Positions 2,700 through 29,303 of a DNA stretch of 48,091 nt are shown here, piece by piece; positions within the stretch are counted from its first letter, which is position 1; every line of letters begins with the position of its first letter. Below the pieces are notes generated by a model, which saw only the letters and a list, made by a program, of their open reading frames with translations, ran no database searches and was not told the origin of the DNA. The position numbers were made by a program, and so were the translations under genes. Location: the NCBI GenBank assembly GCA_964390665.1, contig CAYMLS010000002.1, positions 1 to 48,091 of the forward strand, written 5' to 3'. Source of the DNA: an uncultured Bacteroidales bacterium (GTDB lineage Bacteria; Bacteroidota; Bacteroidia; Bacteroidales; UBA7960).

Positions 2700-2762
2700 G
2701 TTTTTCATGAAAATTTATTATAATCTTCTTTGCATGCTTAATGGTATTGTCATGGTTCGGTT
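2700..2762 (-). repeat. Family-1 element, internally deleted derivative (copy F)
   Basis: TTTTTCATGAAAATTTATTATAATC...TTTGCATGCTTAATGG..TATTGTCATGGTTCGGTTC retains both ends and the GCATG box but is only about 63 nt long. Confidence 0.5.
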
Positions 2763-3199
2763 CTATTGTTTTATGAAACCAGAATACACAAGAAAACAGG
2801 ATTTAAAAACCTCATTTTCAAATCTTTAATACTTCCGGTCACATCACAAGCACACCAAAACAATTGGCAAACCTACTAAATTTTTCAATATAAATGTTTT
2901 ATTTGCCCAATGAATAGTAAAACCCGGCGAAACGACTTTTTAAGATGCGCACAATTCTTCATGGAAAAACTTTATCTTCATCTGAGGATAATTTGCACAA
3001 AAACAATTCAGGCTGTTTCAGGGAAAGAGCCTAATTTTGATTTTCCAGATGGATGATTAAAAATTATGGAAATCCACCTTTTTTTTCACGAATCCGGTAC
3101 CCTTTCTTAGTGTTTTATAATTGTTTTACCAGTGCTTGCCTTGCATTTGCTTCATCCCTGGATGATAATAAATCATTGATTTCAAAAATTGAATTCTAT

Positions 3200-3826
3200 A
3201 TGAGTAAAAAAATATTTTTTGAAAACACCACCTTTTTGCTTTCCAAAAAGAAAAAAAACAATGTTGATAAATATTATAGATTTGAGGAACTTCAACATAT
3301 AAATTTACATACATGGATGCAAAAAACAAAGAACTTTCATACAAACCAAATCATAAACATATGGGGGAAAAAAGGAAAAGATACACTTGAGTTTTTTAAG
3401 TACAATCTGATATTCATAAAAGCAGCAGGCGGATTGGTAAAAAATGAGTTGGGAGAGATCTTGTTTATTTACAGAAAAAACAAATGGGATCTGCCCAAAG
3501 GAAAACCTGAAGGCAAGGAAAGCATGGAAGAGACTGCCATAAGAGAAGTCATGGAAGAATGCGGAATTGACGGTTTACATATAGAAAAAAAAATACCCTC
3601 CACTTACCATATTTACAGGTGTAACAGCAAATACTTTGCGCTCAAAAAGTCAATTTGGTATTTGATGTTTTCCGCGGATTGGAAAGATGTTAAGTTGCAA
3701 TATGAAGAGGAAATAACCGATTATAAATGGATCGCTCCGCCTGTTCCTTTGTCTTTAATGAAAAAAGCATTTCCCTCCATTAAAGATCTGATAGAAAAAC
3801 TAAACTTACACCAAAAAAGTAAGTAG
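3200..3826 (+). CDS. NUDIX hydrolase
   Basis: Nudix box GKPEGKESMEETAIREVMEECGI (GX5EX7REUXEEXGU). The track ORF starts at 3053, but the first 49 aa are low-complexity and lie in an AT-rich spacer. ATG at 3200 (MSKKIFF) is the more plausible start; the start is uncertain. Confidence 0.75.
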   Translation: MSKKIFFENTTFLLSKKKKNNVDKYYRFEELQHINLHTWMQKTKNFHTNQIINIWGKKGKDTLEFFKYNLIFIKAAGGLVKNELGEILFIYRKNKWDLPKGKPEGKESMEETAIREVMEECGIDGLHIEKKIPSTYHIYRCNSKYFALKKSIWYLMFSADWKDVKLQYEEEITDYKWIAPPVPLSLMKKAFPSIKDLIEKLNLHQKSK

Positions 3827-3834
3827 TGTCCTCA

Positions 3835-5250
3835 TTATTGCTGATTGTTTCTTCTTCTCTGGAAAAGCAAATACTCAAATGTAGTGATCAGTTCTCCTGA
3901 AGGATAAGGGGCAGGGTATTTTAAAATATCACCTTCCGGGGAAATCAGCACAAAAAACGGTACAGCCCGAATGCGGTAATCATCTAAAATATCAAAACGA
4001 TGATTAAAATATAAATGCATCCAATCAAACGGATGTGTTTGGATGTAATCTTGAAAATCCGACTTGTGCCGGTCTGTCATCACGGTTAAAAAGGAGAATT
4101 GATCTTCATATTTTTCTGCCAACTCCTGCAAAGCATAAGATTCAATCAGACACGTCTGGCAGGCAGAAGAACCAAAAGAAAGCAGAAGAAATTTACCGCT
4201 GAAATCATCCGGAACAGAAACTTTTGCTCCTTCCGGGTTAGGTAGTTCAAATGATGGCGCCGGCGATCCTTCTGATAAATAAGTTTTTTGATACAAAATA
4301 TTACTGGCTATCTCACGATGACGGAAAAACTTACTGTTTTGAGTAATATGATCTAAGATATCTTTCACATTTTGTGTGCTGAATTCGGGTTTGCCATACA
4401 TGTCGTCCAATCCTTTCAGCAAGACCAACTCGCGAAGCAACTCATTCCTGAGTACAGTATCTTTCCCTAAAGAATCCATCACCGCATCATAACTGTTGAG
4501 TTGGTTTACAGTATAAGTAAGATCAGCGTAGTTGAGAGAACGACTTCCGGCAAAAATATAAGATTCAAATACAGCATTGAAAAAAATCATATACTGCGTG
4601 TTATCGTATAGTATGTCTTTGTTGAGAATGTAACGGTCAAATTGTTTGGCAGTACTTATTGAATTGGAAACACGGTAGTAATAAGCAAATTTGTAAGTAA
4701 AGTAATCCCTGAAATATGGGTCGGAGATACCTTTAAAAACAGAATCCATTTCTAACCTGAATTGATCAAGCATTTCAAAATTCCTGGATTTCTGCATTCG
4801 AACAAAATTTTCCGACAAAAAATCCTGGAAAAGCTCGTCAAAATGATTGATATGGGTATTCAGATCGTTTTGTGGTTGTTGGATGTCAAAAGAAAAGTAC
4901 CATGGATCCATATAAGGATTCCTCTGATCATTTAACTGATTGAAATCAACAGGGTCAAAACGGAGGTAGTATTTTTCTCCGGGTTTTACAAACATATGCA
5001 TACGCGCATGATCTATACGGAAAAAAATATTTTTGGTGGCATCCATCCGGAATGTCATCGAAAAATTACCGAGGGAATCAATCATTTGCCTGTCTGCTTC
5101 CTTTTCAAGATAGGTGATATGGTCAGCATACTGAAATACCCTTAACATACGCCCTTCAGCGCCGGGAAAGTTTCCTTCAATCGTTACTTCATTTTGTGGA
5201 TGAGATAAAAAAGGAGAACAGATGATCCATAAAAGCAAGAAAATTCTCAT
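3835..5250 (-). CDS. Secreted thioredoxin-fold (TlpA/redoxin-like) protein with a large N-terminal domain
   Basis: The C-terminal region has FLLLSFGSSACQTCLIE (CxxC in a thioredoxin-fold context). Signal peptide MRIFLLLWIICSPFLSHPQ. The track ORF begins at a TTG (5262); ATG at 5250 is preferred. Confidence 0.65.
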   Translation of the reverse strand: MRIFLLLWIICSPFLSHPQNEVTIEGNFPGAEGRMLRVFQYADHITYLEKEADRQMIDSLGNFSMTFRMDATKNIFFRIDHARMHMFVKPGEKYYLRFDPVDFNQLNDQRNPYMDPWYFSFDIQQPQNDLNTHINHFDELFQDFLSENFVRMQKSRNFEMLDQFRLEMDSVFKGISDPYFRDYFTYKFAYYYRVSNSISTAKQFDRYILNKDILYDNTQYMIFFNAVFESYIFAGSRSLNYADLTYTVNQLNSYDAVMDSLGKDTVLRNELLRELVLLKGLDDMYGKPEFSTQNVKDILDHITQNSKFFRHREIASNILYQKTYLSEGSPAPSFELPNPEGAKVSVPDDFSGKFLLLSFGSSACQTCLIESYALQELAEKYEDQFSFLTVMTDRHKSDFQDYIQTHPFDWMHLYFNHRFDILDDYRIRAVPFFVLISPEGDILKYPAPYPSGELITTFEYLLFQRRRNNQQ

Positions 5251-5488
5251 GTTACAGCCCAATTTTTAGTTACAATTGGTTAGCAGATATGAAACGAGTG
5301 AATTGAAAAAATATTCTTTTTACCTGCTGATGATCACGATTGTTATTTATTGTACGATAAAGGCATCGAAAAGTTCAAAACATTAAACTTCCTTTTCAAA
5401 CCAATGAATGAATAATATTGTTAATTTTAAAGAAACTTTTTCCTTTACCAATCTCTTTAATACCCCGTTTTTACCAAAATCCAATCCT

Positions 5489-6181
5489 ATGAAAACGATC
5501 CTTTTCTTTCAGGCAATACTATTCACCGGCATTTTATCTATGTCTACAAATCCTTTGCAACAAAATGATTGCAGGGTGCTGATTCCCGAAATTGCGGAAA
5601 ACTATAAAGGGGATTGCAAAAACGGACTGGCACATGGGCAGGGAGTTGCATCCGGCACCGACCACTATAAAGGGAAGTTTAAAGAAGGACTTCCCCATGG
5701 AAGAGGAACTTACACCTGGGAAGACGGAAGTATCTATAAAGGAAGATGGAGAGAAGGAGAACGCGACGGTAGAGGTACATATGTTAAAATTGTCGACAAT
5801 GAAGAAATGATCAGTAAAGGAATCTGGCAGGCAGATACTTTTTTAAGAGACAGGAGAACCAAAGAATACAGCGTAGGACATGTTTTGAATGTTGACAGAT
5901 ACACCATCAGAAAAATTGATGAAACGCCAGATAGAATTATGGTATTTCTGCAGCAGAGAGGAAGTCAGAATACCAACGTAAGAAACTTTCATTTTTTAAT
6001 GGATGGAGATGGAGAGAGATATTTCATGGGCGGACAGATCGGATATCAAAATGTAAAGTTTCCCGCCCGGTGTCAAATAACCTACGAAACACCCGATATT
6101 TTTGAAAATGTTGTTTACAGGGTCAGAATGGAAGTAACCATTAACGAACCCGGAGATTGGCTGATAACTTTGCACAATTAA
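5489..6181 (+). CDS. MORN-repeat secreted protein
   Basis: Consecutive YxGxxxxGxxHGxG repeats (YKGDCKNGLAHGQG, YKGKFKEGLPHGRG, YKGRWREGERDGRG). The signal-like N-terminus MKTILFFQAILFTGILS begins at internal ATG 5489 (track ORF from 5408). Confidence 0.7.
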   Translation: MKTILFFQAILFTGILSMSTNPLQQNDCRVLIPEIAENYKGDCKNGLAHGQGVASGTDHYKGKFKEGLPHGRGTYTWEDGSIYKGRWREGERDGRGTYVKIVDNEEMISKGIWQADTFLRDRRTKEYSVGHVLNVDRYTIRKIDETPDRIMVFLQQRGSQNTNVRNFHFLMDGDGERYFMGGQIGYQNVKFPARCQITYETPDIFENVVYRVRMEVTINEPGDWLITLHN

Positions 6182-6218
6182 ACAAAGAGTTCACTCCACA
6201 AAAAGACTTTGGTCTTTC

Positions 6219-7661
6219 CTAAAGAGCGGAAATCCATTTGGGCAAAGTTTCTTCTTCAAATTCTTCCTGCATTTCTCTTAGTTTATCCATATCCAATCCT
6301 ATAAACTCCTGTGCTTTCTCTTTCGTAGAAATGTCCGGCATTTCAATAGGAAACTCAAGGTCGTACCTGGCATAAACCGGGGCAAGCAAAATACGGGCTT
6401 CCTGGCTTTTCTGAATAGATGTGCCCAGTACCCTGAGTGCCACATTTGGTGAATGTATGCCATAACCGTTGGCAGCAGCTACCCAGTCCCATCGCCATTG
6501 TGCATGTCTGATAAGGGTAAGCACCTCTTCCATTTCTCCTTCTGTTGCGCCGGCATCCCATGCTCTCTTTGCTTCAATATGCAACTGTGCCAGATTTTTT
6601 TCTGCAATCCGTCTTAGTTCGGCAACTTTATCCTGACGATCATAAACATTGGCTAGCAAAGTAGATTCGCTTTCACGATGACATACCTGGCAGGTATTTT
6701 CTATATTATTCAAAGGACTACTAATATGATGATTGGTAAATTTAATGCCCCCTTCGCGTTTGTAAGGCATATGACAATCGGCACAGCTTACGCCTCTTTC
6801 GGCATGAATTCCTGTTTTGTATAGTTCATAATCAGGATGTTGCGCTTTAAGCATAGGTGCTTTGCTAAGGGCATGCACCCAATCAACGTGCCCAATATTA
6901 TCATAATATTCTTCCATTTCATCGGCAGAAAAACCATCGTCCCAGGGGAACTTCAGGTAGTTATTTTCACCAAAATAATATTCGACGTGGCACTGAGCAC
7001 ATACCAGTGAACGCATTTCCTGCATATCAGCCTCTTCAATGTTCAATCCTCTTCTTTCGTAGGCTTCAACCAAAGCTGGTCGGGTAATGCGCAGGTTCAT
7101 TGTTTGAGGATCATGGCAATCCTGACATCCGATATGATTCTGCACTTCATCTCCTAAATCTTTCCATGTGCCTGCATAAAACTCTGCAACCCCCATTTCA
7201 TTCATCAGTCGGGGAACATCGGTACTTTTACAAGTCCAGCAGGTAGCTGCCATAGGAGTTACAGTTCTCAGGGTGCTTCGGATGTCATCAATGGCATAAT
7301 AATGCCCCCGCCCCTGGTTATAGTCCCTTGAAAAAGCATATCCGGCCCACATCACCACCATCTCCGGGTATCTTTCAAGATAATCAATGGTTGCCGAACC
7401 TACGTATTTACTTCTGAAAGTAGTATCCTGGGTTCTCATATAGCTTTCATATTGCCTGGGGAAGTTCTCACCCCATACAGCATTATCGGGTTCCCAGTCT
7501 GAGATTGGATTCACCATTTGAAAATAGAGTTGTGCTTCGCTTCTTCGTTCAACAATGGAAGAAGCAAATAAACCGATAACAAAAACAACAATCACGGTTA
7601 CAAAAAAAAGGAACCAATTGATCCATGGTTTTTCTTTGGATATTTCTCTGATACTTTTCAT
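6219..7661 (-). CDS. nrfA: Ammonia-forming cytochrome c nitrite reductase, pentaheme catalytic subunit
   Basis: 480 aa. It has the diagnostic CWTCK (CXXCK) active-site haem motif plus four CXXCH motifs (CQDCH, CAQCH, CADCH, CQVCH). It has an N-terminal membrane anchor and lies directly downstream of nrfH. Confidence 0.92.
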   Translation of the reverse strand: MKSIREISKEKPWINWFLFFVTVIVVFVIGLFASSIVERRSEAQLYFQMVNPISDWEPDNAVWGENFPRQYESYMRTQDTTFRSKYVGSATIDYLERYPEMVVMWAGYAFSRDYNQGRGHYYAIDDIRSTLRTVTPMAATCWTCKSTDVPRLMNEMGVAEFYAGTWKDLGDEVQNHIGCQDCHDPQTMNLRITRPALVEAYERRGLNIEEADMQEMRSLVCAQCHVEYYFGENNYLKFPWDDGFSADEMEEYYDNIGHVDWVHALSKAPMLKAQHPDYELYKTGIHAERGVSCADCHMPYKREGGIKFTNHHISSPLNNIENTCQVCHRESESTLLANVYDRQDKVAELRRIAEKNLAQLHIEAKRAWDAGATEGEMEEVLTLIRHAQWRWDWVAAANGYGIHSPNVALRVLGTSIQKSQEARILLAPVYARYDLEFPIEMPDISTKEKAQEFIGLDMDKLREMQEEFEEETLPKWISAL

Positions 7662-7807
7662 CTGTTTATAATTTTATTAAAGTTGTTAGATGCCTGTCTC
7701 GTTTTTTCCAACGAGAGAGCTCGCCAAAACTCTGACTACATGTTTTACCATGCCGCGAATGATCATCATGCGCGTGTGTGTCAAAATTTTGTCATGCCCC
7801 GGTTCAT
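7655..7807 (-). repeat. Family-1 intergenic element, copy A (nrfH-nrfA spacer)
   Basis: It shares CTGACTaCATGTTTTACCATGCCGCGAAT...GTGTGTCAAAATTTTGTCATGcCCCGGTTCA and CTGTTTATAATTTTATTAAA with the other copies. Hairpin TCTCGTT/AACGAGA lies at 7697-7716. Strand is given as the one reading TGAACCG...TATAAACAGAT. Confidence 0.85.
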
Positions 7808-7866
7808 ATGTCTAAATTTTTATCCGTATAGTACTTTCTTATATTGATAATGGATGTTTTTCTTTT

Positions 7867-8460
7867 TTACTCAAGTAAACCTTCCATCCAGGAAGGTAAG
7901 GTAGAAGGTAACCTCTTTACCAGAGCATGGGGAGCAGCAGAAGCACTTTGCACTGTACCATGTGGTGTTTCACGATGACAATCCCAGCAAAGTTTCGCTT
8001 CATCCTTCATCGCCATGTTGCCGGTCATTTCCACCAGACGGGTCATCTCAACCAAATCATCATGACACCTTATACAGTTTTCCTGTACTACATTAACACC
8101 TGCACTTTTGATATCTATGACCTGCGGCTCCCATCGCATGGTAAAATAGGTGGCATGACGTAAACCATCAGATGCCTTGAAAAAATAAGTCCGTAAAAAA
8201 TGATCCTGAGGCACATGACAATCATTGCAGGTTGCATAATTTTCATGGCTGCTTTTCGTCCAGGAAGCATAATGTGGATACATCACATGACAGTTAATAC
8301 ATGCATCGGGTTCGTCGGAAAGATAGGATCCTGCTCTGGAGATATGCACCACAAGAAACAATATGCCACAAAAAATACCCAACAGAACAATCACAGTTCT
8401 TTTCCAACGCAATGGCGGTTCCAGCAGTTTCAGAATTTTTCTCAGGGTCTCCATAGACAA
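7867..8460 (-). CDS. nrfH: Cytochrome c nitrite reductase small subunit, NapC/NirT-family tetrahaem quinol dehydrogenase
   Basis: 197 aa. It has an N-terminal TM helix and four CXXCH motifs (CINCH, CNDCH, CIRCH, CWDCH), and lies upstream of nrfA on the same strand. Confidence 0.88.
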   Translation of the reverse strand: MSMETLRKILKLLEPPLRWKRTVIVLLGIFCGILFLVVHISRAGSYLSDEPDACINCHVMYPHYASWTKSSHENYATCNDCHVPQDHFLRTYFFKASDGLRHATYFTMRWEPQVIDIKSAGVNVVQENCIRCHDDLVEMTRLVEMTGNMAMKDEAKLCWDCHRETPHGTVQSASAAPHALVKRLPSTLPSWMEGLLE

Positions 8461-8482
8461 CTTATTTAAGAAAACAAGTACT

Positions 8483-8514
8483 CAAATGTAGTTTTAATAC
8501 TACAAATAGCCAAA
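8483..8514 (-). promoter_or_regulatory. Candidate Bacteroidota sigma-A promoter for nrfH (TTTG-N20-TACATTTG)
   Basis: On the minus strand, TTTG (8511-8514) is followed after 20 nt by TACATTTG (8483-8490). This matches the TTTG / TAnnTTTG -33/-7 consensus and sits about 22 nt upstream of the nrfH ATG. A TGTAGT-N6-ACTACA palindrome (8487-8504) overlaps it. Confidence 0.4.
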
Positions 8515-8692
8515 ATATAACTCCACATAAATGATATTTATAATCATTTTAAATAAGAAATAAGGAGGTAATTTTTTCTGTTGATTAAAATATGTGGTTT
8601 ATGCAATTAAAAACCTTTTTAATCAATAATAATTTCTAAATTTGTTAGACAATAATCAGGTGGTTATTTTTTACTGACTTTACAATCGTTTT

Positions 8693-11100: not shown

Positions 11101-11115
11101 CACTCCTCAAAAAAA

Positions 11116-11197
11116 GCGGATGTGGCGTAATTGGTAGCCGCGCCAGACTTAGGATCTGGTGCCGAGAGGCGTGGGGGTTCGAGTCCCTTCATCCGCA
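11116..11197 (+). tRNA. tRNA-Leu (anticodon TAG), type II with long variable arm
   Basis: Folded by hand: acceptor GCGGATG/CATCCGC, anticodon stem CCAGA/TCTGG with loop CTTAGGA (anticodon TAG), long variable arm, T-loop TTCGAGT, discriminator A. CCA is not encoded. Confidence 0.88.
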
Positions 11198-16066: not shown

Positions 16067-17494
16067 CTATTTTCCCCTTCCCTGGATGATGATGATAACG
16101 GTGTGAATAAGAATTTTAAAATCTACCGCCAAAGACATGTTTTCAAGATACAGCAGGTCATACTTAAGGCGTTGAATCATTTCCACAACATTTTCAGCAT
16201 AACCAAATTTCACCTGCCCCCAGGAGGTGATGCCGGGTTTTATCTTTTGAAGCAGTTTATAATGGGGTGCTTTTTGTGTGATCAGGTTAATAAAATACTC
16301 TCTTTCGGGACGCGGTCCGACAAGAGACATGTTTCCTATCAAAACATTATAAAACTGAGGTATTTCATCAAGTCTGACTTTCCTCATAAAAAGGCCGAAA
16401 GGGGTGATCCGGGGATCATTTTCACAGCTCAACTGCGGACCATTTTTCTCAGCATCCATATACATCGACCGAAACTTATGCATATAAAAAGGTTTTCCGT
16501 TGATACCAATGCGTTGGTGCGAATAAAAAACCGGTCCTTTGGAAGACATCTTTACACCAATGGCTGTAATCAAAAAAACAGGAGAAAGCACGATCAAAGC
16601 CATCACAGAAACTACTACATCCAGAAATCTTTTGATATAGGCCTGCCAGGTGGGCATCAAACCTTGCTGTATCTGAATAAGAGGCGCATCAAATATGGAA
16701 GTCATTTTTACCGACCCCAGCAATATATCATGCATATCGGGAATAATTTTTATGATGGCATTGGTCTGATACAATTCCGCTAATATTTTACCTATATTTT
16801 TATGTTCTTTGGGTTCCAGGGCAATGATCACATCTTCTACATCATGCTCTTCAACAATTGATTTCAGATCTTTAAACCATCCTAAACGTGGCAGATGGTC
16901 TTCCATCAGATAACTGTCAAACAAGTTTACATTTACAAATCCAATAAATTTATTGCCTGAAGATTTACGCTGAGATTCCATTTCACTATACAAACCAAAG
17001 GCCTTTCGCTGACTACCAACGATCAGGGTATTAAAACCAATAATGCGGTTATGTATTTTATGGGTTAGGATGGATGATAAAATGAAGCGGAATACGGCAG
17101 TAAAAGACAAATGAAATACAAACAACAACCCAAAGGAACGATAATATTCCGTGCTGGTTGTTACCCGGTCATCACCAAGTAAAACAACAAAGAATATGAT
17201 CAGTACCCCGATAGTTGTTATAAACAGGGTTTGCCCAAACTCGTTTAACCTAGATCTTCTCAAAACTTTCTTATAACTTCCGCTTAGTGTATATAATAAA
17301 ATCCAGAAAAAAGGTATGATGATAGTACCCAGCAACAAATTCTGATCAATAAATATTTCATTGGTAATATGACTAAACCTGCCATTGTGCGTCGTTTGCC
17401 TGTAAACGATAAACAAAAACCAGGAAAAGAAAGCGGAAAAAAAGTCTGCTGTCAGGTATTTTAGTAACTGAATCCGATGTAATCGTTTGTTCAC
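16067..17494 (-). CDS. Polyprenyl-phosphate glycosyl-1-phosphate transferase (WbaP/exopolysaccharide initiating sugar transferase family)
   Basis: 475 aa. It has N-terminal multi-TM segments and a C-terminal Bac_transf domain with FYMHKFRSM, DEIPQFYNVLIGNMSLVGPRPE and KPGITSWGQV. Confidence 0.85.
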   Translation of the reverse strand: MNKRLHRIQLLKYLTADFFSAFFSWFLFIVYRQTTHNGRFSHITNEIFIDQNLLLGTIIIPFFWILLYTLSGSYKKVLRRSRLNEFGQTLFITTIGVLIIFFVVLLGDDRVTTSTEYYRSFGLLFVFHLSFTAVFRFILSSILTHKIHNRIIGFNTLIVGSQRKAFGLYSEMESQRKSSGNKFIGFVNVNLFDSYLMEDHLPRLGWFKDLKSIVEEHDVEDVIIALEPKEHKNIGKILAELYQTNAIIKIIPDMHDILLGSVKMTSIFDAPLIQIQQGLMPTWQAYIKRFLDVVVSVMALIVLSPVFLITAIGVKMSSKGPVFYSHQRIGINGKPFYMHKFRSMYMDAEKNGPQLSCENDPRITPFGLFMRKVRLDEIPQFYNVLIGNMSLVGPRPEREYFINLITQKAPHYKLLQKIKPGITSWGQVKFGYAENVVEMIQRLKYDLLYLENMSLAVDFKILIHTVIIIIQGRGK

Positions 17495-17758
17495 GCTGTT
17501 TCTTTTTGTAAAGGTTATATTTTGCTAATCAATGGCATAAAAACCACTTTTAATAAAATATTTTAATCGGCCAGGTTATTATTTTAACCAAACGTAAAAA
17601 TGAATCTAAAAGTATAAGAAGAGATCATTTTTTTTAAAGTTTTTCCATCATCGTTTTTTTTATGTATCTGAAATTTGATCAAAGTGTTCAGATGCCCCTG
17701 AAAACATTGGTACTGGAAGTTTTGGAGACTCCAGGATTTAATCATTTGCTGGTATTTG

Positions 17759-17912
17759 ATAAACCGAGCATGACAAAAATTTTTGACACACACGCGCATG
17801 ATTATAACTCGCGGCATGGCAAAACATGCAGTCAGAGTGCTAGCGAGCTCTCTCGTCGGAAAAAACGAGACAGGCATCTGGCAGACTTAGTCAAATCATA
17901 AACAGATGAAAA
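17759..17912 (+). repeat. Family-1 intergenic element, copy B
   Basis: It reads AAACCGAGCATGACAAAAATTTTTGACACACACGCGCATGATTATAACTCGCGGCATGGCAAAACATGCAGTCAG...hairpin TCTCGTC/GACGAGA...CATAAACAGATGAAAA. Confidence 0.85.
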
Positions 17913-17997
17913 ACAGGTATTTACTTTTGGCAATCGACTATTTTGAGGGCGAGCCCCAAGGCAGCAATTGGCGTTTTCCTGCAAGCACTTTGGAATC

Positions 17998-18966
17998 CTA
18001 TTGACCAATTTTTTCCATGATCTTGTAAGCCAGATCAAGTGAATTGTAACCGTCTTCAATACTTACCAAAGGATCGGTATCATTTACAATAGAATCGTAG
18101 AAAGTTTCCAACTCGGTTTTGATGGCGTTGATGGGCTTTATTTCGGGTTTTTCGATCAGAATTTCCTTTGATGGTTTTCCTTCTCCCAGGTTCAGAACCA
18201 TGGAAAAAGGCCCGGGATCTTCCGGTGCATCTTTCATTCTAATGATCTCGCTTTCCTTGGTAAGAAAATCCACGGCGATATAGCTATCTTTTTGAAAAAA
18301 CCGCGACTTTCTCATATTTTTCATGGATATTCTGCTGGCAGTAAGATTGGCAACACATCCATTGTTGAATTCAATCCTGGCATTGGCAATATCAGGACTA
18401 TCAGAAACGACGGAAACCCCGCTTGCATGAATCCTTTTAATAGGTGATTTGATAACACTGAGAACAATATCAATATCGTGAATCATCAGATCAAGAATAA
18501 CGGGTACATCCGTTCCCCTCGGATTAAATTGTGCCAGTCTGTGTGTTTCAACAAACATCGGATGATCAAAAAACGGCAAAGTGGCTAAAAAGGCCGGATT
18601 AAATCTTTCCACATGCCCGACCTGAACCTTTACATTGGCCTCCTTGGCAAGATCTATTAAATTTCGCGCCTCCGAAACAGATGTAGTAAGTGGTTTTTCA
18701 ATAAAAACGTGCTTAAAACTGCGAAGTGCTTCTGATGCATTGTCAAAATGAGACAAAGTTGGGGTTACAATATCAACAATATCAGCGGTATTGATAAGAT
18801 CATGGGCACTTTTAAATCTTCTGATCCCATAATTTTTTTCTACATCTTCTGCTGTTTTCTCATCAGGATCATAAAACCCAACACATTCAAGCAATTCAGA
18901 TTCTTTTATACATTTTATATGTATTTTGCCGAGATGACCGGCTCCCAGTACACCAATTTTATTCAC
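17998..18966 (-). CDS. Gfo/Idh/MocA family NAD(P)-dependent oxidoreductase
   Basis: 322 aa. It has an N-terminal Rossmann motif IGVLGAGHLGKIH, an EKPL motif (FIEKPLT), and typical length. Confidence 0.8.
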   Translation of the reverse strand: MNKIGVLGAGHLGKIHIKCIKESELLECVGFYDPDEKTAEDVEKNYGIRRFKSAHDLINTADIVDIVTPTLSHFDNASEALRSFKHVFIEKPLTTSVSEARNLIDLAKEANVKVQVGHVERFNPAFLATLPFFDHPMFVETHRLAQFNPRGTDVPVILDLMIHDIDIVLSVIKSPIKRIHASGVSVVSDSPDIANARIEFNNGCVANLTASRISMKNMRKSRFFQKDSYIAVDFLTKESEIIRMKDAPEDPGPFSMVLNLGEGKPSKEILIEKPEIKPINAIKTELETFYDSIVNDTDPLVSIEDGYNSLDLAYKIMEKIGQ

Positions 18967-19225: not shown

Positions 19226-19356
19226 TTTTATCTGTTTATATTTGTTTTTCAATTGACGGATGGAGATCGCCAATACGCTGACTGCATGTTTTACCATGCC
19301 ACGAATTATAATCATGCACGTGTGTGTCAATATTATTATTGTCATGGTTCGGTTTA
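19226..19356 (-). repeat. Family-1 intergenic element, copy C (lacks the variable hairpin)
   Basis: On the plus strand it reads TTTTATCTGTTTATA...CGCCAATACGCTGACTGCATGTTTTACCATGCCACGAATTATAATCATGCACGTGTGTGTCAATATTATTATTGTCATGGTTCGGTTTA. Confidence 0.8.
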
Positions 19357-19535
19357 TCCCAAAAGCATCTTGTAAACAGCATCGCATTGCTGACCTTCAA
19401 CTTACTTGAGATTTAAGGTGTTAAAAAAGCGGAACGGGTGCAATTTTTCAAACCTATTTCAAAACCTGTTGTTTGGATTATGAATAAACAGTAGTTTAAT
19501 TATGATCGGGATGATCATTCCGAAATAAAAACTCC

Positions 19536-21172: not shown

Positions 21173-21227
21173 TTTTTTTGATTTTAATTAGTTTCGCTTA
21201 AATAATAAAAATTTCCTTTAACCATTG

Positions 21228-22545: not shown

Positions 22546-22607
22546 AATTTTTATCAGTATAGCCCCGGTACAATGAAAAAATTGTAATCCTAAAAATGAT
22601 TCCACTA

Positions 22608-22727
22608 CAAAAAGTCTGTTATCCACAAATAACGTAAATTGACACTAATTTTAATACCTGACATTCAGGCAAATAAAGAAGAATATTTTCACGAATTTAC
22701 CGAAAACGAGTTTTCGGAGTGGACTCA
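22608..22727 (+). repeat. Family-2 intergenic repeat, copy 3
   Basis: AAAAAGTCTGTTATCCACAAATAACGTAAATTGACACTAATTTT...TTCACGAATTTA, then hairpin CCGAAAA/TTTTCGG (22700-22717), then AGTGGACTCA. Confidence 0.6.
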
Positions 22728-22802
22728 AAAATGGATATTGGTTTTGTCGAACTTAGTGTTTTTCCACTTTACTTCGTTCCGTCCGGAATGACATACAGAT
22801 GA

Positions 22803-23294: not shown

Positions 23295-23305
23295 GACAAA
23301 TACGA

Positions 23306-23998
23306 TCAGGAATTAATAAGTGCCTGTGCACGTGATATATAACGCTCAATATTCCGACCTTCATTGGTATTGGGAAAATCTTTTTGAATGCGCTCATAGG
23401 CTTCCACCGCTTCAGTGTAGTTGCCCTGCAATTCATGAACCATTGCCAGTTTCATCAAAAATGCAGGTGAAGTGAGGGGATTGGAATAGCGATCGGTTGC
23501 TTTTTTGTAATAATCTACTGCCTTTTCCATATCTCCTGATTGCAAATGAGCATCACCAAGTGCACCCAGCGCCATGGGAGCAACAAGCTCATCTTTTCGC
23601 TTGTATTTTTTAAGGTGTGTGATCGCCTCCTCATATTCACCCATATTCAGATACGAAACTCCTGCATAATAACGCGCCAGGTTTGCAGAACTGGTCATTT
23701 TGTATTCAGAAATAATATCGAGAAAACCCAGATGAGCAGCGTCGCCTTCCAGAGCAAGTTGCAAACTGTCTTCGGCAAAGTATCTCTCTGCCATGAACAT
23801 TTCCTCACTGGCTTCTTGTTCCCGCGGATCAATGATAAAACGGTTGAACCCGATATAACCAGCAATAATCAAAACGATAAAGGCAATAACACCGATAAGC
23901 AGATTCTGATTCTTTTCGATGAACTGTTCACTTTTACTCAATGCTTCCTCAACAGCAACGATATTTTTTTCTCCTTGCTCTGTTTTATTATTCTTCAT
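23306..23998 (-). CDS. Membrane-anchored tetratricopeptide-repeat protein (YfgM-like)
   Basis: 230 aa. It has one N-terminal TM helix (LLIGVIAFIVLIIAGYIGF) followed by TPR-like repeats. It lies 11 nt upstream of ribH on the same strand. Confidence 0.65.
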   Translation of the reverse strand: MKNNKTEQGEKNIVAVEEALSKSEQFIEKNQNLLIGVIAFIVLIIAGYIGFNRFIIDPREQEASEEMFMAERYFAEDSLQLALEGDAAHLGFLDIISEYKMTSSANLARYYAGVSYLNMGEYEEAITHLKKYKRKDELVAPMALGALGDAHLQSGDMEKAVDYYKKATDRYSNPLTSPAFLMKLAMVHELQGNYTEAVEAYERIQKDFPNTNEGRNIERYISRAQALINS

Positions 23999-24173
23999 GC
24001 TTAATTTATTATTTGATGTTTATTTTATGATTTCTAATAGAAAACAGGTACAATAAAAACCAATCAAATTTGTTGATACCTATACCTTCATTTTTTTTTG
24101 TGTGCAAAATTAACCTAATTTTGCGTGTTTCAAATATTTTATTTGAACAACCTGCTTTTTTTGACAAATTTTT

Positions 24174-25652
24174 ATGAGAAAACTTTTCCCTCTTCTGGCA
24201 ACGCTGCTTATCTTGCTTCTGGTATTGCAATTTCAATCATGCCGGGAAGATAACTTTGATGATTCACCATCCGTTCAACTGTCCTTTTCTACCGACTCAC
24301 TGCTTTTCGATACGGTATTTACCACCATAGGATCATCTACGCGCTATTTTAAGGTATATAACCAGCACTCTTCGGGTGTGGTCATATCTGACCTTCGCCT
24401 GGCAGGTGGACAAAGTTCTTTCTTTCGTATCAATGCCAACGGCAGTAGCGGCACACATATTACTGATCTGGAGATCGGTGCCAATGACAGCATTTATGTG
24501 TTTGTTGAAGTAACGGTTGACCCGCTGGGTGAAGACCTGCCTTTGGTTATTTCCGACAGTGTGGTTTTTTACATGAACAATAATGTTCAGGACGTAAAAC
24601 TTGTTGCCTGGGGGCAGGATGCCAATTTTATCCGCCCTAATTATTCTGATACCATCAATAATATTGACTACCATCTGATAACCAACCATACAACCTGGTC
24701 AGGAATAAAACCCTGGGTGGTCTACGGACTGGTAGTGGTTGCGCCCGATGCTTCCCTTACCATCGATAAAGGATCAAAGGTACACTTCCACAACAACTCA
24801 GCAATGATATTTTTGAATCGGTCGAGTTTAAAAATAGAGGGTACTGCAGAAGAACAGGTTGTTTTGCAGGGCGACCGCCTTGAAACAGATTATGCTGACC
24901 TACCCGGTCAATGGGGATACATCTGGCTGACAGCAGGAAGCCAGGATCACATAATTGAGAATGCAACCATCAAAAATGCTACTTATGGCGTCATTATGGA
25001 CTCCATTGGCAGTTTTACAGAACCAACACTGCGCATGCACAACACCATTGTAAAAAACATGGACCAAACAGGACTGGAACTGAGGGGTGCATGGGTGGAA
25101 GCAACCAATCTTGTGGTTGCCAATTGTGGGGTAAATGCCATCAATATGATGCTGGGCGGAAACTATAGTTTCAAACATATTACCGTTGGCAACTATTTCA
25201 GCCTGCCAGGTACCATCCGGCAAACCCCTTCTCTGGCATTCAATAATTACTATGTTGATACATCCAATACGGTGCAGGTGAGAGATTTTGAACAGATCTA
25301 CTTTGGCAATTCCATTATTTATGGCAGTTTGACTGATGAGATATCGCTCGATCTTTTCCCGGATAACAACAACCCTGGCTTTACTTTCGATCATTGTCTG
25401 ATCAGAACCTCCCTGCATACACAATTTCCGGATTTGTTTATCAATAGTATAACCAATCAACAACCCCGATTCGTGGAAGCGCGCGATAATAACTACAGAT
25501 TGCGCGAGGATAGTCCTGCCAGAAAAAAAGGCAGTACCGAAATTGCCCTTGAGGTACCCCTGGATATTTTAGGACGAAACCGTACCGACAGCGTAGATGT
25601 AGGTGCTTATCAGTATTATGAGGAAGAAGTGGAAGAGGAAGGTAATAATTAG
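24174..25652 (+). CDS. Hypothetical lipoprotein, probable beta-helix-rich
   Basis: Lipobox LVLQFQSC. The sequence is 492 aa, rich in N/G/T/I repeats reminiscent of right-handed beta-helix proteins. No catalytic motif was recognised. Confidence 0.4.
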   Translation: MRKLFPLLATLLILLLVLQFQSCREDNFDDSPSVQLSFSTDSLLFDTVFTTIGSSTRYFKVYNQHSSGVVISDLRLAGGQSSFFRINANGSSGTHITDLEIGANDSIYVFVEVTVDPLGEDLPLVISDSVVFYMNNNVQDVKLVAWGQDANFIRPNYSDTINNIDYHLITNHTTWSGIKPWVVYGLVVVAPDASLTIDKGSKVHFHNNSAMIFLNRSSLKIEGTAEEQVVLQGDRLETDYADLPGQWGYIWLTAGSQDHIIENATIKNATYGVIMDSIGSFTEPTLRMHNTIVKNMDQTGLELRGAWVEATNLVVANCGVNAINMMLGGNYSFKHITVGNYFSLPGTIRQTPSLAFNNYYVDTSNTVQVRDFEQIYFGNSIIYGSLTDEISLDLFPDNNNPGFTFDHCLIRTSLHTQFPDLFINSITNQQPRFVEARDNNYRLREDSPARKKGSTEIALEVPLDILGRNRTDSVDVGAYQYYEEEVEEEGNN

Positions 25653-25742
25653 TGCCAGCAAGTAAACCCGCATTCTTATATGTGCTTGATAAAGATAGCT
25701 TCAAGTGCAAGGCAGGAGATGACCGAAAAACAGGAGTTTAAT

Positions 25743-25885
25743 TTTATCTGTTTATAATTTTATTAAACAGGTCCCCGTCCTTTTCTTACGGGGGGAGTTC
25801 GCCATCATGCTGACTGCATGTTTTATCATGTTGCGAATTATACTCCTCCGCGTACGTGTCAAAATTTTTGTCATGGCTCGGTTCA
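25743..25885 (-). repeat. Family-1 intergenic element, copy D
   Basis: On the plus strand it reads TTTTATCTGTTTATAATTTTATTAAA, then hairpin CCCCGT/ACGGGG, then CTGACTGCATGTTTTATCATG...GTGTCAAAATTTTTGTCATGGCTCGGTTCA. Confidence 0.85.
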
Positions 25886-25925
25886 CCCATGTACAATTCA
25901 TTTGCTGTCACAATGATCAAGACTG

Positions 25926-28373
25926 CTAATCATCCGATATCCGCCTCATCTCCTCATCTATGGCCGAACGGCTTCTTTGACGTGCTTTGGCCTGCTGGTT
26001 GCCAAAATTCCAGGTTAAACTGAAACCGAACCTTTGGTTGTCAAACGTTCTCACACCATCCGTAACAATACCACCATAATTGCTCTGGTAAAAGTAATCG
26101 CTGTTGGTTCTGAATATGTCACTGCCTGTCAATTGCACAATAAGGGTTCTGTTCATAAACGATTTTCTCACTCCCACATTCAATCCCTGGTTTCCTTCTA
26201 CTTCAACCGAACCACGCCATATCCAGGGGCTGTAAATATAGTAAGTGAGTTCCAGGTTTACATCACCAGGGAGTTTGAGCATATTTTGCACACGGAAATT
26301 ATATTTGCTAACGGTAAGATCAATTACAGTTCCTTGCAGATCGCCCCCGTATGTCTCATAGTTATAGTTGAAAAAGGTATTGAACTGCCACCACTCCAAA
26401 GGCTGCACCGGATAAGTAACCGATAATGCATAATTTGTAACCTTGTCCATATTTCGGGGGGTGAGAAAACTGTTCTCTTCTTCAGCAACAAAAATAGTAG
26501 CAAAAAAATCGCGTGTGATGCTGTAAGAATTGGAAATAACCAATTTTCTTTTCCAGGAATACGACAGGTTATAATTGGTGATATAGTTGGGTTGCAGAAA
26601 AGGATTACCTTTCCATGACTGAATTTCGCTCATTTTATATTCAAATGGGTTCAAAGATTGATAATCAGGTCTGTTGATCCGCCTTCCCACACTTGCACTT
26701 ATAGTGCTGTTTTTCTGGTTGTTGTAGGAAATACCGATGCTGGGAAAAAAGTCGTTATAATTTCTGTTTACCCTGTCGTCGAGTGTGGGTACCTCACTAT
26801 CAAGCACACCGAGGGAGGAAGTGTTTTCCATACGTACACCTGCATTCAAAGAGAGGTATTCGTTGGGTTGGGCATTCATCATGAAATAAAAGGCAGCAAC
26901 ATTTTCTTCATAACTAAAATCGTTGCTTTGTGAGATATCGTAAACAGGACTGCCTTCCACAAAATTATAAAAAGCCAGGCTGTTGTCGGTGCGGATATAA
27001 GAATACTTGGCCCCGGTGGAAAAAGTAAGAAAGCTGAACTTTTTCTCGTAATCAACCATGGCAGATGCGATATCGATGGATGTGCCCGTATCGAAACGAC
27101 TGTTGGAGGTTCTGATAACGCTTCCTATACCAGGGTCATAATATGTGTTGGGTTGATCTGTACCACCTGTCAGGTCGTATCGCCCAAAACTGATATTGGT
27201 TGATATATTGGCGGTAGTGCCTGGAGTGTACCGGTGGTTAAGATTGATCATGTAGTTTTCAGTAGGATCATCTTCAAATGTTTCAGCAATCAGTAATTCT
27301 GCAGGTAATTCATCCTGGGCATGAGCAATGCCGGTATTATTCAGCGACTCACCGCCTCTGTCGGTTATAAAAACCCTGCCATCAAGGGAGATTGAATTTT
27401 TTTCATTGAGCGTATAATCCATACCGCCAGAAAAGTTATATCCTGTTCGGTAGTAAAGACCATCGGTTTGCATATCGAGAATAAAACCACGCTGTTCGGA
27501 TATTTCATTAAAATCATCCTGAAACTCTGAATCGTTGATGGACAGACTAGTGTTAAAAGCCAGTTTCTCTCCCATATAATTGAGTGATGTACCCAGGTTG
27601 CCACGTCCGTGATTACCCAATGAATATCCAGATACAAGGTTTCCGTTAAATCCCAGATTCTTGTTTTTCTTCATAATAATATTGATAATACCGCCCGTTC
27701 CTTCGGCATCATACTTTGCTGATGGATTGGTAATGAGTTCAATGGACTCAATGTTATCTGACGACATCCCTTCGAGCAGGTTATCCAGATCATCTCCGGA
27801 AAGGCGTGACGGACGACCATTGATATAGATCTGCACACCCGACTTACCTTGCAAGCTGATGCTGTTGTCCATATCTACGGTAACTCCCGGTGCATCTCCT
27901 AATAGTTCCAGTGCATTGGTTCCCGAGGCATTGACACTTGCCGATACATTATAAACCATTTTATCAGGATGTATTTCGATCAGGTTTTTATCTGCAGAAA
28001 CCACAACCTCACCCAGTTGATTGACAGCCTGAAGCAGGTAAATGGGATCAAGCTCCAGCATCATGCCGGGTTCAATGGTGATAAGGTCTGAGATGTAGGT
28101 ACGGAATTCTATATTCCTGATCTGCAAATAATAATCTTCGGGTTCCACATTTTCAAGCAGGTAAGAACCATCTTCCTGGCTCAATACCCCTTTTACAAGA
28201 ACTGAATCCTTGTTGAGCAAGACCACAGTTGAATACATGGCCGGCTCATTATCAGGGTTGAAAACGAATCCACTTATTTGAGCCTTTTCATTCTGCGCCA
28301 TTAGCATATTGCAGAAGAACATCAGAATAATAAACAGAGTTAATTTATATTTTAAAATAGTCATAGCCTTCAA
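25926..28373 (-). CDS. Outer-membrane beta-barrel receptor with CarboxypepD_reg N-terminal domain (TonB-dependent-receptor-like)
   Basis: 815 aa. It has a signal peptide, then ISGFVFNPDNEPAMYSTVVLL (carboxypeptidase-regulatory-like fold), a plug-like region (DAPGVTVDMDNSISLQGKSGVQIYINGRP), and a long alternating beta-strand region. Confidence 0.8.
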   Translation of the reverse strand: MKAMTILKYKLTLFIILMFFCNMLMAQNEKAQISGFVFNPDNEPAMYSTVVLLNKDSVLVKGVLSQEDGSYLLENVEPEDYYLQIRNIEFRTYISDLITIEPGMMLELDPIYLLQAVNQLGEVVVSADKNLIEIHPDKMVYNVSASVNASGTNALELLGDAPGVTVDMDNSISLQGKSGVQIYINGRPSRLSGDDLDNLLEGMSSDNIESIELITNPSAKYDAEGTGGIINIIMKKNKNLGFNGNLVSGYSLGNHGRGNLGTSLNYMGEKLAFNTSLSINDSEFQDDFNEISEQRGFILDMQTDGLYYRTGYNFSGGMDYTLNEKNSISLDGRVFITDRGGESLNNTGIAHAQDELPAELLIAETFEDDPTENYMINLNHRYTPGTTANISTNISFGRYDLTGGTDQPNTYYDPGIGSVIRTSNSRFDTGTSIDIASAMVDYEKKFSFLTFSTGAKYSYIRTDNSLAFYNFVEGSPVYDISQSNDFSYEENVAAFYFMMNAQPNEYLSLNAGVRMENTSSLGVLDSEVPTLDDRVNRNYNDFFPSIGISYNNQKNSTISASVGRRINRPDYQSLNPFEYKMSEIQSWKGNPFLQPNYITNYNLSYSWKRKLVISNSYSITRDFFATIFVAEEENSFLTPRNMDKVTNYALSVTYPVQPLEWWQFNTFFNYNYETYGGDLQGTVIDLTVSKYNFRVQNMLKLPGDVNLELTYYIYSPWIWRGSVEVEGNQGLNVGVRKSFMNRTLIVQLTGSDIFRTNSDYFYQSNYGGIVTDGVRTFDNQRFGFSLTWNFGNQQAKARQRSRSAIDEEMRRISDD

Positions 28374-28387
28374 TTGGATTTAAAAAT

Positions 28388-29116
28388 TTATTCCTGTTTC
28401 CTGAAAATCATATACCAGTTGATATAATGAATTTTAGAATCAGGTTTTTGTAATTCTTCCTTGTCTTCCTTTGTAAGAATGGGTATCATAACATCCTGGC
28501 CTGGTTGCCAATCAGACGGGATCACGATATTATCTTTGTTTTGCTGGGTTTGCAGTGCTTTTAAAGTTCTGAGGATTTCTCCGGCATTACGACCCACCTC
28601 ATTGGGGTAAAACTGAAAAGCCCTGATCTCGTTGTCGGGATCCACGAAAAATACGCCCCTTATACTTTGCCCGTTGCCGGTTTTTGAATCAATCATACCA
28701 TAGCTGTGGGAAATCACCGCGGAACTGTCCACCACAAAAGGAAAGTCAATTTTAACCGGATTTCTGCCTTTGTAAGGGATGGATTCCATCTCTGCTTTCC
28801 AGCTTTTGTGTGAAGCCATCCTGTCTACAGAGATCACCAGCAGTTGTGTTCCCAACTCCCTGAACTCATCCTGTCGGTATGCAAGTTCCAGAATTTCTGA
28901 CGAACACACAGGAGTGAAATCACGCGGATGAGCAAAAAGAATTTTCCAACTCTCCCCAAAATCTTCCGGGAAGGAAATGGGTCCGTTGGTGGATGAACTT
29001 TTAAATGCAGGTGCCTTGGAACCGAGCAAAGGTATGCGTTGATCGTTTGCATGCTGAGCCAACGTTATGTTAAAGAAAAAGAGCATTGCCCCTAAGTTGA
29101 GAATCATATTTTTCAT
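28388..29116 (-). CDS. Peroxiredoxin (Prx6/1-Cys-like AhpC/TSA family) with an N-terminal signal peptide
   Basis: HPRDFTPVCSSE peroxidatic-Cys motif. The N-terminus MKNMILNLGAMLFFFNITLAQ looks like a cleavable signal peptide. It ends 14 nt upstream of the OM barrel gene. Confidence 0.8.
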   Translation of the reverse strand: MKNMILNLGAMLFFFNITLAQHANDQRIPLLGSKAPAFKSSSTNGPISFPEDFGESWKILFAHPRDFTPVCSSEILELAYRQDEFRELGTQLLVISVDRMASHKSWKAEMESIPYKGRNPVKIDFPFVVDSSAVISHSYGMIDSKTGNGQSIRGVFFVDPDNEIRAFQFYPNEVGRNAGEILRTLKALQTQQNKDNIVIPSDWQPGQDVMIPILTKEDKEELQKPDSKIHYINWYMIFRKQE

Positions 29117-29137
29117 GAGTGTTATTGCTTTATATCA

Positions 29138-29303
29138 TTTTATCTGTTTATAATTTTATTAAATAGATCCCCGTTCTTTTCTTACGGGGGAGCTCGCCAA
29201 CACGCTGACTGCATGTTTTACCATGTCACGAATTGTACTTCTCCGCGTGTACTTCGACATGCTCAGCAGAACTGTGTCAAAATTTTTGTCATGGCTCGGT
29301 TCA
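29138..29303 (-). repeat. Family-1 intergenic element, copy E (with a ~22-nt internal insertion)
   Basis: It has the same ends and the CCCCGT/ACGGGG hairpin as copy D. There is an extra ACTTCGACATGCTCAGCAGAAC-like segment before GTGTCAAAATTTTTGTCATGGCTCGGTTCA. It lies 22 nt upstream of the peroxiredoxin ATG. Confidence 0.85.

Follow-up and report, generated by a model that had tools for sequence, protein, structure and literature searches.

A non-coding mobile element of uncultured Bacteroidota that inserts behind ATGAA and can resupply a displaced start codon

Insertion sequences of the IS200/IS605 family insert 3' of a fixed tetra- or pentanucleotide that is kept in the left flank, without duplication and without inverted repeats; they carry subterminal hairpins, are strand specific and move by peel-and-paste single-strand transposition, with TTAC as the target of IS608 and TTGAT as that of ISDra2 (PMC5934647; PMC8612924). 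Here, we describe a short non-coding element present in several copies in a 48,091-nt stretch of an uncultured Bacteroidales bacterium (contig CAYMLS010000002.1, positions 1 to 48,091; the whole stretch is called the window below), and we compare it with the palindrome-associated transposable elements (PATEs), which derive from IS200/IS605, are non-autonomous and are moved by the Y1 HUH enzyme TnpA. Like PATEs, it has no terminal inverted repeats, lies in one orientation 3' of a fixed motif of 4-5 nt kept in the left flank, shows a target duplication of at most 3 nt, if any, contains internal hairpins with a strand-specific fold, has a size within 100-300 nt, and can form tandem head-to-tail junctions because the element end recreates the target. 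Unlike PATEs, no TnpA/TnpB partner with matching ends was found for it, it has no paired similar subterminal palindromes at IS608-like distances, and its target, ATGAA, can coincide with a start codon, for which the element supplies a replacement ATG and a leader. To our knowledge, no described IS200/IS605 element targets a start codon and rebuilds it. This start-codon-doubling target with a restored codon and leader is the distinctive property of the element, and no description of it was found in the literature: a full-text search with four strings of the element sequence, for two of which the reverse complement or RNA form was used as well, gave no match, and searches combining TnpB, target-adjacent motif (TAM) and ATGAA, or MITE (miniature inverted-repeat transposable element), Bacteroidetes and start codon, returned nothing relevant. 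By analogy, the element would work most like a PATE; membership in that group is unproven, with partner enzyme and end architecture not matched.

The insertion unit was defined at the nrfH-nrfA locus. In the window, nrfH (7867-8460(-)) and nrfA are 205 nt apart with copy A of the element in between (7657..7802 (-), 146 nt, CCGGGGCATGAC...AAACAGATGAA; a long form with a TCTCGTT/AACGAGA hairpin, 119.8 bits with the covariance model), while the empty spacer measures 56-58 nt in four contigs with a 93%-identical NrfA (L048-L051) and in one with a 95%-identical NrfA (L064). The empty site of L064 reads ...ACGGATAAAAATAAAAAACT-ATGAA-AAGTATCAGAG, and the filled site of the window reads ...ACGGATAAAAATTTAGACAT-ATGAA-(CCGGGG...AAACAG-ATGAA)-AAGTATCAGAG; that is, ATGAA is followed directly by AAGTATCAG in the relatives and by 146 nt and then AAGTATCAG in the window. 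The comparison therefore shows that the insertion is exactly the 146-nt unit placed after ATGAA and that nrfA now starts at the ATG of the element, whose terminal ATGAA (7661-7657) supplies the nrfA start codon and the two A that follow it. The target pentamer, which is the ATGAA that originally began nrfA, is stranded at 7803..7807 (-) as the 5' flank of copy A, and the native nrfA leader (ACGGATAAAAAT...) continues upstream of it. The possibility that this flank is the tail of an older element was rejected because the empty alleles show the native nrfA leader. The orthologous intergenic regions are thus polymorphic for presence and absence at nrfH-nrfA; in relatives at 79-80% identity, no copy was found within 15-21 kb around the nrfA or the peroxiredoxin/outer membrane protein (OMP) loci.

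Three insertion sites could be reconstructed in all (nrfH-nrfA, L040 and L062), and the other two lie inside coding genes. At locus L040, an antisense copy lies inside an IS200-family transposase gene (94-663), and in silico removal of exactly 126 nt gave a 147-aa open reading frame (ORF) matching positions 5-121 of 121 of the Y1_Tnp profile and NCBIfam transpos_IS200. At locus L062, a copy lies inside a four-helix-bundle (23S_rRNA_IVP) gene, and removal of 126 nt restored a profile match over positions 1-105 of 106. The upstream flank of the L040 Y1 gene carries an ACCGC-GTA-GCGGT hairpin, which is unlike the element. The spacer between the GFO and Bac_transf genes holds a copy in the 93% relatives too, but this one runs opposite to copy B of the window, and the intergenic region looks like an insertion hot spot. 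When window positions 17494-17998 were compared with L048 35-554, about 350 nt were non-homologous except for the element, and the flanking genes were 85-92% identical. The sequence-only reading of this DNA had proposed a MITE-like mobile non-coding element as one of its options, and the nrfH-nrfA polymorphism, the insertions in two coding genes and the star-like family described below bear out that option. We are highly confident that the family exists, that it is mobile and that it is specific for ATGAA; we see in it a previously undescribed family within a familiar class of genomic parasites and not a family of small-RNA genes. The fuller statement, that this is a non-autonomous, non-coding transposon family targeted to ATGAA and moved by an HUH/Y1-type enzyme, we consider probable.

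Five full copies were recovered by a repeat search of the window, at the positions given by the sequence-only reading. A 21-nt core pattern, CATGNNAAAACATGNAGTCAG, matched five times, exactly at the five full copies, compared with 0.07 matches expected by chance, and the covariance model, run with filters off over the whole 48 kb, found the five full copies at E = 4e-23 to 7e-18 (match ranges 7656-7807(-), 17759-17911(+), 19226-19357(-), 25742-25886(-) and 29138-29304(-)) and no other significant match. Copy B (17764..17910 (+), 147 nt, long form, 5' flank ATAAA, 109.8 bits) is oriented toward the 3' end of a GFO/IDH/MocA oxidoreductase gene, and its terminal ATG opens a 32-codon ORF only. Copy C (19227..19352 (-), 126 nt, 115.6 bits) is a short form without the GC hairpin, has ATAAA both as 5' flank and as end, and lies 260 nt upstream of an oxidoreductase gene. 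Copy D (25743..25881 (-), 139 nt, matched by the covariance model) carries a CCCCGT/ACGGGG hairpin, has GTGAA as 5' flank and ATAAA as end, and lies between convergent genes with no downstream gene. A 98%-identical strain carries copy D, and in two assemblies of this strain the contigs end inside the copy, about 30 nt in (L056 2753-2794, L057 2535-2576), which suggests that the repeat breaks short-read assemblies in this lineage. Copy E (29139..29299 (-), 161 nt, 95.3 bits) has the same CCCCGT/ACGGGG hairpin and a 23-nt insertion in its 5' half; it has ATGAA as 5' flank and ATAAA as end, and a peroxiredoxin gene (Pfam AhpC-TSA) starts 22 nt further on, with its ATG at 29116.

Two remnants accompany the full copies. 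The piece noticed earlier at 2700-2762 is a genuine decayed remnant, here called F (2717..2763 (-), the 5' portion, GAACCGAACCATGACAATA...GATTATAAT): its 5'-terminal 19-mer at 2745-2763(-) has one mismatch compared with 0 matches expected, and the remnant as a whole is marginal (nhmmer E = 0.038, covariance model E = 5.4). The second remnant (17653..17705 (-)) consists of hairpin and tail only (nhmmer E = 0.037 over model positions 117-169; covariance model E = 0.34) and represents an older copy on the opposite strand that abuts the 5' side of copy B. The earlier inventory of six sites was real in every case and had missed this tail-only remnant. Its statement that four of the six copies point at a downstream start codon was right for copy A, which is fused to the nrfA ATG, and for copy E; copies C and F lie 260-290 nt away, and copies B and D face no gene.

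Outside the window, at least 19 further distinct copies were found in other Bacteroidota metagenome-assembled genomes (MAGs) and metagenome contigs; to date, the element is known from uncultured Bacteroidota only, including several that come from saline or soda-lake sediments. The core-pattern scan of one representative genome per species listed 20 stretches, comprising eight true copies and 12 chance matches (rough chance expectation for 18 fixed bases, ~17 matches), and the true copies came from MAGs labelled Bacteroidales (three 'CSSed...' isolates) and Sphingobacteriia (two isolates). The metagenome scan added five copies, four of them from the single sediment sample 'SL_3KL_010_SED', nhmmer revealed a diverged second copy in locus L001, and a peptide search, in which translations of the four open consensus frames were compared with 5.8 billion predicted proteins, led to four more loci with four new distinct copies. 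The final alignment comprises 24 distinct copies, all of them supported by the covariance model; diverged copies are undercounted, since both large scans required the exact core. Consensus BLAST against 72,556 plasmids and 50,697 phages gave no match, and a viral-contig scan gave two matches, both due to chance. The genes around the window copies are ordinary housekeeping genes (nrfH/nrfA, clpXP, trigger factor, peroxiredoxin, OMP), and the NrfA of the window is 93% identical to proteins from MAGs named 'Bacteroidales bacterium' and 'Bacteroidota bacterium'.

The consensus of the family reads ATGAA/CCGAGCCATGACAAtAAttTTGACACACACGCGGATGATTATAATTCGCAGCATGGTAAAACATGCAGTCAGAGTATTGTTGGCGAGCTC^CATCTGACCnaTTTAATCAAATTATAAACAG-ATGAA/A, where ^ is the optional hairpin site. 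After the target, the element starts as ATGAA/CCGAGCCATGAC..., and its own end is ...AAATTATAAACAG-ATGAA, giving a canonical unit of 126 nt from CCGAG to the final ATGAA. In the subfamilies of 137-171 nt, the extra length comes from optional GC-rich hairpins, which occupy two fixed sites; near these, copy E has one further insertion. The covariation of the GC-rich hairpin noticed earlier (TCTCGT/ACGAGA versus CCCCGT/ACGGGG) was recovered, and other genomes extended it: the stems at the ^ site also include TCCCGC/GCGGGA, TCCACGC/GCGCGGGA and CCTGCCTGCC/GGCAGGCAGG, while the second site, between ACAC and GCGG, is occupied in some copies (GTCTC/GAGAC in L022, GTCCCG/CGGGAC in L063a). One stem variant is common to D, E, L032 and L048 and another to L045 and L001b; such recurrence across genomes marks subfamilies and not independent local changes. 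With the boundaries set by the empty site, the 5' end CCGAGCCATGACAA showed no similarity to the 3' end read as its reverse complement (TTCATCTGTTTATAAT), in line with the earlier statement that terminal inverted repeats are absent. No reading frame is shared between copies, each frame being open somewhere, and a protein-coding reading was rejected because 1-nt indels shift the frames between copies so that no common frame exists, as had also been noted from the window copies. Each copy shares 81-98.5% identity with the consensus, and copies compared with one another share less (82% in the window, 89% for short forms taken from different contigs). Copies are therefore closer to the consensus than to each other, which is the star-like structure of a transposon family: a conserved active lineage, in which the fold would be under selection, spawns copies that would decay neutrally.

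Short consensus-like copies fold on the sense strand (ViennaRNA) into a three-way junction, whose long stem consists of GCCA/UGGC, ACAAU/AUUGU and CUUUGAC/GUCAGAG and encloses the hairpins GCGGAU/AUUCGC and GCAUG/CAUGC. Short forms gave z-scores of -2.7 to -4.6 on the sense strand versus 0 to -2 on the antisense strand, and the means of the 24 copies were -2.6 versus -1.4. G-U pairs are near-constant (columns 29-129 are U-G in 24/24 copies, columns 90-103 are G-U in 17), and such pairs make the fold strand-specific. Good folding on one strand only, optional hairpins that keep pairing with different sequences, and a sequence conserved across several MAGs would fit a multicopy small-RNA gene or riboswitch-like cis-regulatory RNA family with its function conserved at each locus, of which the small-RNA version had been the other option of the sequence-only reading. 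This idea is already largely refuted and now barely credible. Copies are present or absent among close relatives, and they lie inside ORFs (L040, L062) and between convergent genes. Covariation in the core helices did not exceed that of shuffled alignments (score 0.055 versus 0.059; double changes 2 versus 2.8 expected), and RNAalifold retained only four pairs, all invariant. The covariation hoped for from a larger alignment did not appear in the core of the 24 copies; the optional peripheral hairpins alone show it, and there it distinguishes one subfamily from another. Furthermore, the central hairpin is lost in the diverged copies L001b, L048 and L062 with no compensation, and no terminator or promoter belonging to the element was evident; the GC hairpin was rejected as an intrinsic terminator because no T-run follows it on either strand. 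The Rfam search suggested at the outset gave no relevant match: at gathering thresholds, the whole window yielded only a tRNA and DUF805b, and at E <= 10 copies B and C yielded nothing relevant.

Insertion occurs in one orientation, directly 3' of an ATGAA pentamer and usually with A next. Boundaries could be assigned for 22 copies; of these, 17 have ATGAA as 5' flank and the others ATAAA, GTGAA or TCGAA, and in 21 the element is followed by A. The earlier view that there was no obvious target-site duplication and no common flanking target had to be given up, given that ATGAA, ATAAA or GTGAA stands 5' of all its copies, which end in ATGAA or ATAAA followed by A. At L062, the 5' flank is TCGAA and the element end is still ATGAA; the terminal AT(GAA) is thus part of the element, and the target duplication is at most GAA, with zero duplication fitting all data. 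Head-to-tail junctions were observed at four loci (L015, L020, L022, L032), where a new copy begins exactly after the ATGAA that ends an older tail. Tail-only fragments of 22-55 nt, ending exactly in CAGATGAA, abut the 5' ends of the full copies there (L015 7706-7741, L020 183-236, L022 2119-2140, L032 about 7850-7887); upstream of these solo tails no decayed core was detectable.

The element lacks inverted repeats, always inserts in the same orientation 3' of a pentamer that is kept in the left flank, duplicates little or nothing of its target, has a strand-specific, hairpin-rich fold and forms head-to-tail junctions; together, these features led us to propose a Y1 HUH transposase acting in trans. 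An HUH/Y1 transposase of the IS200/IS605 type would mobilise the element as single-stranded DNA; the top-strand fold of the element, with the three-way junction and the invariant G-T/G-U pairs, would be recognised by the enzyme and possibly also by a TnpB-type partner, and individual copies would then decay neutrally. IS200/IS605 elements favour the top strand on the lagging-strand template. In the window, where the GC skew is uniformly negative, the top strand coincides with the G-rich strand for six of the seven copies and remnants. This is the favoured orientation, but the hint is weak, as the sample is small and confounded with gene orientation. We hold this mechanism, drawn by analogy with IS200/IS605, only tentatively, at somewhat less than even weight.

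Several observations weigh against the Y1 mechanism or limit it. Pfam scans found no transposase among the window ORFs, and the window and the loci of the element and its relatives (~215 kb, a weak test) contained no Y1 or TnpB gene bounded by these ends. From the 5.8 billion proteins, the four-frame peptide search brought up just four ORFs, each of which overlaps an element copy, and both the genome and the metagenome scan needed the exact 18-base core, so that diverged copies and any autonomous relative were possibly missed. The only Y1 transposase seen, that of L040, is an insertion victim whose own flanks are unlike the element, and tblastn with the rebuilt protein against the collected loci found L040 itself only. 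The hairpin layout is not obviously that of IS608 or ISDra2. A pair of similar subterminal palindromes is lacking: the hairpins present (GCGGAU/AUUCGC, GCAUG/CAUGC and the optional GC stems) differ from each other and are not positioned as in IS608. The foot-to-end distances are ~30 nt and ~28-65 nt, and no guide tetranucleotides could be assigned. In addition, a 3-nt (GAA) duplication is compatible with the data, as the element end repeats the target, and neither simple peel-and-paste nor simple tandem insertion accounts for the tail-only fragments that abut full copies. These fragments, 3'-terminal and ending in ATGAA at all four loci, resemble truncated products of polar copying. Together with the Y1 partner not being found, they would suit movement of the same non-autonomous element by other machinery, namely a rolling-circle Y2 HUH enzyme of the IS91/ISCR type, an IS110/IS1111-type recombinase acting on a short shared core or SINE-like reverse transcription leaving 5'-truncated copies. 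A lack of inverted repeats and one short motif at both junctions are also features of IS91 (flanking tetranucleotide) and IS110 (core repeated at both junctions). However, the target sites share only 5-6 nt, compared with the 11-14 nt read by IS110 bridge RNAs, and no reverse transcriptase, IS91 or IS110 gene was present in the loci inspected (Pfam on the window ORFs; pre-computed annotations of the relatives' loci). Moreover, tail fragments were found only beside full copies and never alone, a poor fit to random truncated retro-insertions. We consider these other machineries unlikely.

The target pentamer ATGAA reads as a start codon followed by the beginning of a Lys or Asn codon, and it begins 14 of the 36 window genes. 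An ORF of 81-520 codons starts at the terminal ATG of the element in 10 of the 22 copies, and in an eleventh (L016) the ORF runs off the locus; none of the five copies ending in ATAAA has an ORF behind it. The fused products are unrelated to each other: NrfA, an Aminotran_3 (HemL-like) enzyme, SusD, a sulfatase, a TonB-receptor plug, an ABC auxiliary lipoprotein, a fasciclin protein, a Fib_succ_major protein, a Phd/YefM antitoxin and a small lipoprotein. In a census of the window with the copies masked, 233 ATGAA sites comprised 13 start codons, 50 intergenic sites and 170 sites inside genes. If only start-codon and intergenic sites were tolerated, a start-codon share of ~21% would be expected, taking this census as a proxy for the other genomes, versus 45-50% observed (binomial P = 0.002-0.008). 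We read the start-codon excess as purifying selection acting on a 5-nt target, and an extra preference for, or benefit at, gene starts may come on top. Bacteroidota use A/U-rich leaders in place of a Shine-Dalgarno sequence, and the tail before the ATG (UUUAAUCAAAUUAUAAACAG) resembles the displaced native A/U-rich leader (GAUAAAAAUAAAAGUAU in the relatives). An insertion at a start codon would strand the old ATG upstream and give the gene a new ATG with an A/U-rich leader. Because of this spare ATG and leader, such insertions should be nearly harmless, which would explain why about half of the surviving copies are fused to the first codon of real genes.

The same excess of start-codon fusions above the census prediction could instead mean that the element is kept mainly as a useful portable expression module, offering a promoter, a stabilising 5' hairpin, a leader with ATG or a translational switch and thereby bringing unrelated genes under common control. 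The A/U-rich tail fits such a module, as do the nearly invariant TTGACA and TATAAT hexamers, which are present and 14 nt apart as had been reported. The sequence-only reading had suggested that the element donates promoters; promoter donation is not supported. The 14-nt gap between the perfect hexamers lies outside 16-18 nt and is widened further by hairpin insertions in three copies (E, L022, L063a), and a consensus scan found no sense-strand sigma-70 site with a 16-18-nt spacer in any copy. The Bacteroidetes -33 TTTG / -7 TAnnTTTG motif occurs five times in the window, never inside an element, and in none of the other copies. One of these, TTTG-N20-TACATTTG at 8483..8514 (-), is found 23 nt upstream of the nrfH start; since the window holds no more such motifs than chance would give, the site is a candidate only. 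From its sequence and position, it is likely the promoter of the nrfHA operon containing copy A; being directly upstream of nrfH, it makes copy A, which lies downstream of it, most simply part of the nrfHA transcript. Copies B and D, as described, face no gene, the L040 and L062 copies interrupt genes, the downstream genes are functionally unrelated, and helices are lost in decayed copies without compensation, with covariation not above shuffles. We therefore judge the module explanation improbable. What the element donates is a short A/U-rich leader and a replacement ATG.

From its position, the element would be transcribed as part of host mRNAs, and its top-strand fold is conserved in the active lineage; a role of the RNA, either as a scaffold similar to the right-end omega RNA or reRNA or as a mobile translational switch, has a slim chance. 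In the switch version, the internal CAUCUG could pair alternately with the start-codon region (the terminal CAGAUG, hiding the AUG) or with GUCAGA; 87% of cells are paired for each of the two, and copy L014 changes both partners together (UAUCUG/CAGAUA), which are points in favour of the module explanation as well. If true, such a switch would put nrfA, hemL, susD-like and sulfatase genes under one post-transcriptional control. In the scaffold version, ATGAA could serve as TAM and the host ORF could provide the guide in its first 16-20 nt, with a nuclease encoded elsewhere enforcing retention or homing at start codons. The guide RNAs of TnpB and IscB (reRNA, omega RNA), which derive from the right end of IS200/IS605 elements, are likewise structured RNAs of ~130-150 nt ending at the right boundary of the transposon, with ATGAA corresponding to the TAM and the flank to the guide. 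This is pure analogy: no TnpB was found, there is no sequence or Rfam similarity, and no sign of RNA processing was seen.

Other known repeats differ more clearly. Classical MITEs (the Neisseria Correia CREE, ERIC/IRU and RUP) are also short, non-coding, multicopy and mostly intergenic, are often co-transcribed with their neighbours, and can alter expression and cause assembly breaks. The present family shares the general MITE features, with copies of 126-171 nt, no conserved frame, 24 distinct copies and empty sites. However, classical MITEs have terminal inverted repeats and a fixed-length target duplication (TA for Correia) because DDE transposases move them, and the element has neither. 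A classical DDE-mobilised MITE was rejected, as there are no inverted repeats and the same pentamer occurs at all sites in place of a site-varying duplication. REP and REPIN sequences (repetitive extragenic palindromes and their inverted pairs), moved by RAYT, a Y1 relative, are HUH-type, hairpin-based, short intergenic repeats without terminal inverted repeats, like the element. In contrast, REPs are 20-40-nt palindromes, single or in inverted pairs, with a conserved 5' tetranucleotide, whereas the canonical element, 126 nt long, is asymmetric, has a polarity and inserts at a defined point. An integron attC site was considered and rejected because the ends are not complementary (no R''(RYYYAAC)/R'(GTTRRRY)) and copies lie in both orientations and inside operons. 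REP/REPIN, attC and Rfam-family identities were accordingly all set aside.

The 5-nt target doubling as a start codon plus AA, together with the spare ATG and A/U-rich leader brought along, would give the element a neat harmlessness: insertions at gene starts, even inside the nrfHA operon, keep the gene intact while the element would be transcribed. For the annotation and assembly of Bacteroidota MAGs, the consequence is that contigs break in copies and chimeric ORFs are called (P0241-P0244), while the true start of the gene is formed by the last bases of the element. The presence/absence polymorphism is a strain-level marker in these uncultured lineages. If the single-stranded-DNA mechanism were true, ATGAA would be a new target motif for HUH transposases and possibly for associated RNA-guided nucleases.

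Several further features were recorded in the window. Positions 29519-30038 and 41571-42090 form a 520-nt duplication (99.6% identity) that corresponds to the 3' part of a DUF418 gene; the full gene lies at 41572-42870, and the shortened copy (ORF 29508-30065) lies ~215 nt upstream of the 5' end of copy E. The gene order in a 79% relative is SnoaL - DUF418 - X - peroxiredoxin - OMP, which indicates a recent rearrangement adjoining copy E in the window. A 43-nt direct repeat (81% identity) at 29374-29416, between the shortened DUF418 copy and copy E, and at 46400-46442, just upstream of a SnoaL-like gene, probably belongs to the same rearrangement. Positions 33691-34329 and 34375-35013 form a 640-nt internal direct repeat (79% identity) inside the 568-aa ORF 33602-35308, which points to a duplicated domain in its protein. 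An 82-nt tRNA gene (11116-11197 (+), Rfam 56.3 bits), unrelated to the repeats, lies between a 731-aa ORF and the trigger-factor gene, and the Rfam DUF805b RNA motif (47774-47809 (-), 51.8 bits versus a gathering score of 35.6) lies just upstream of ORF 46975-47754(-).

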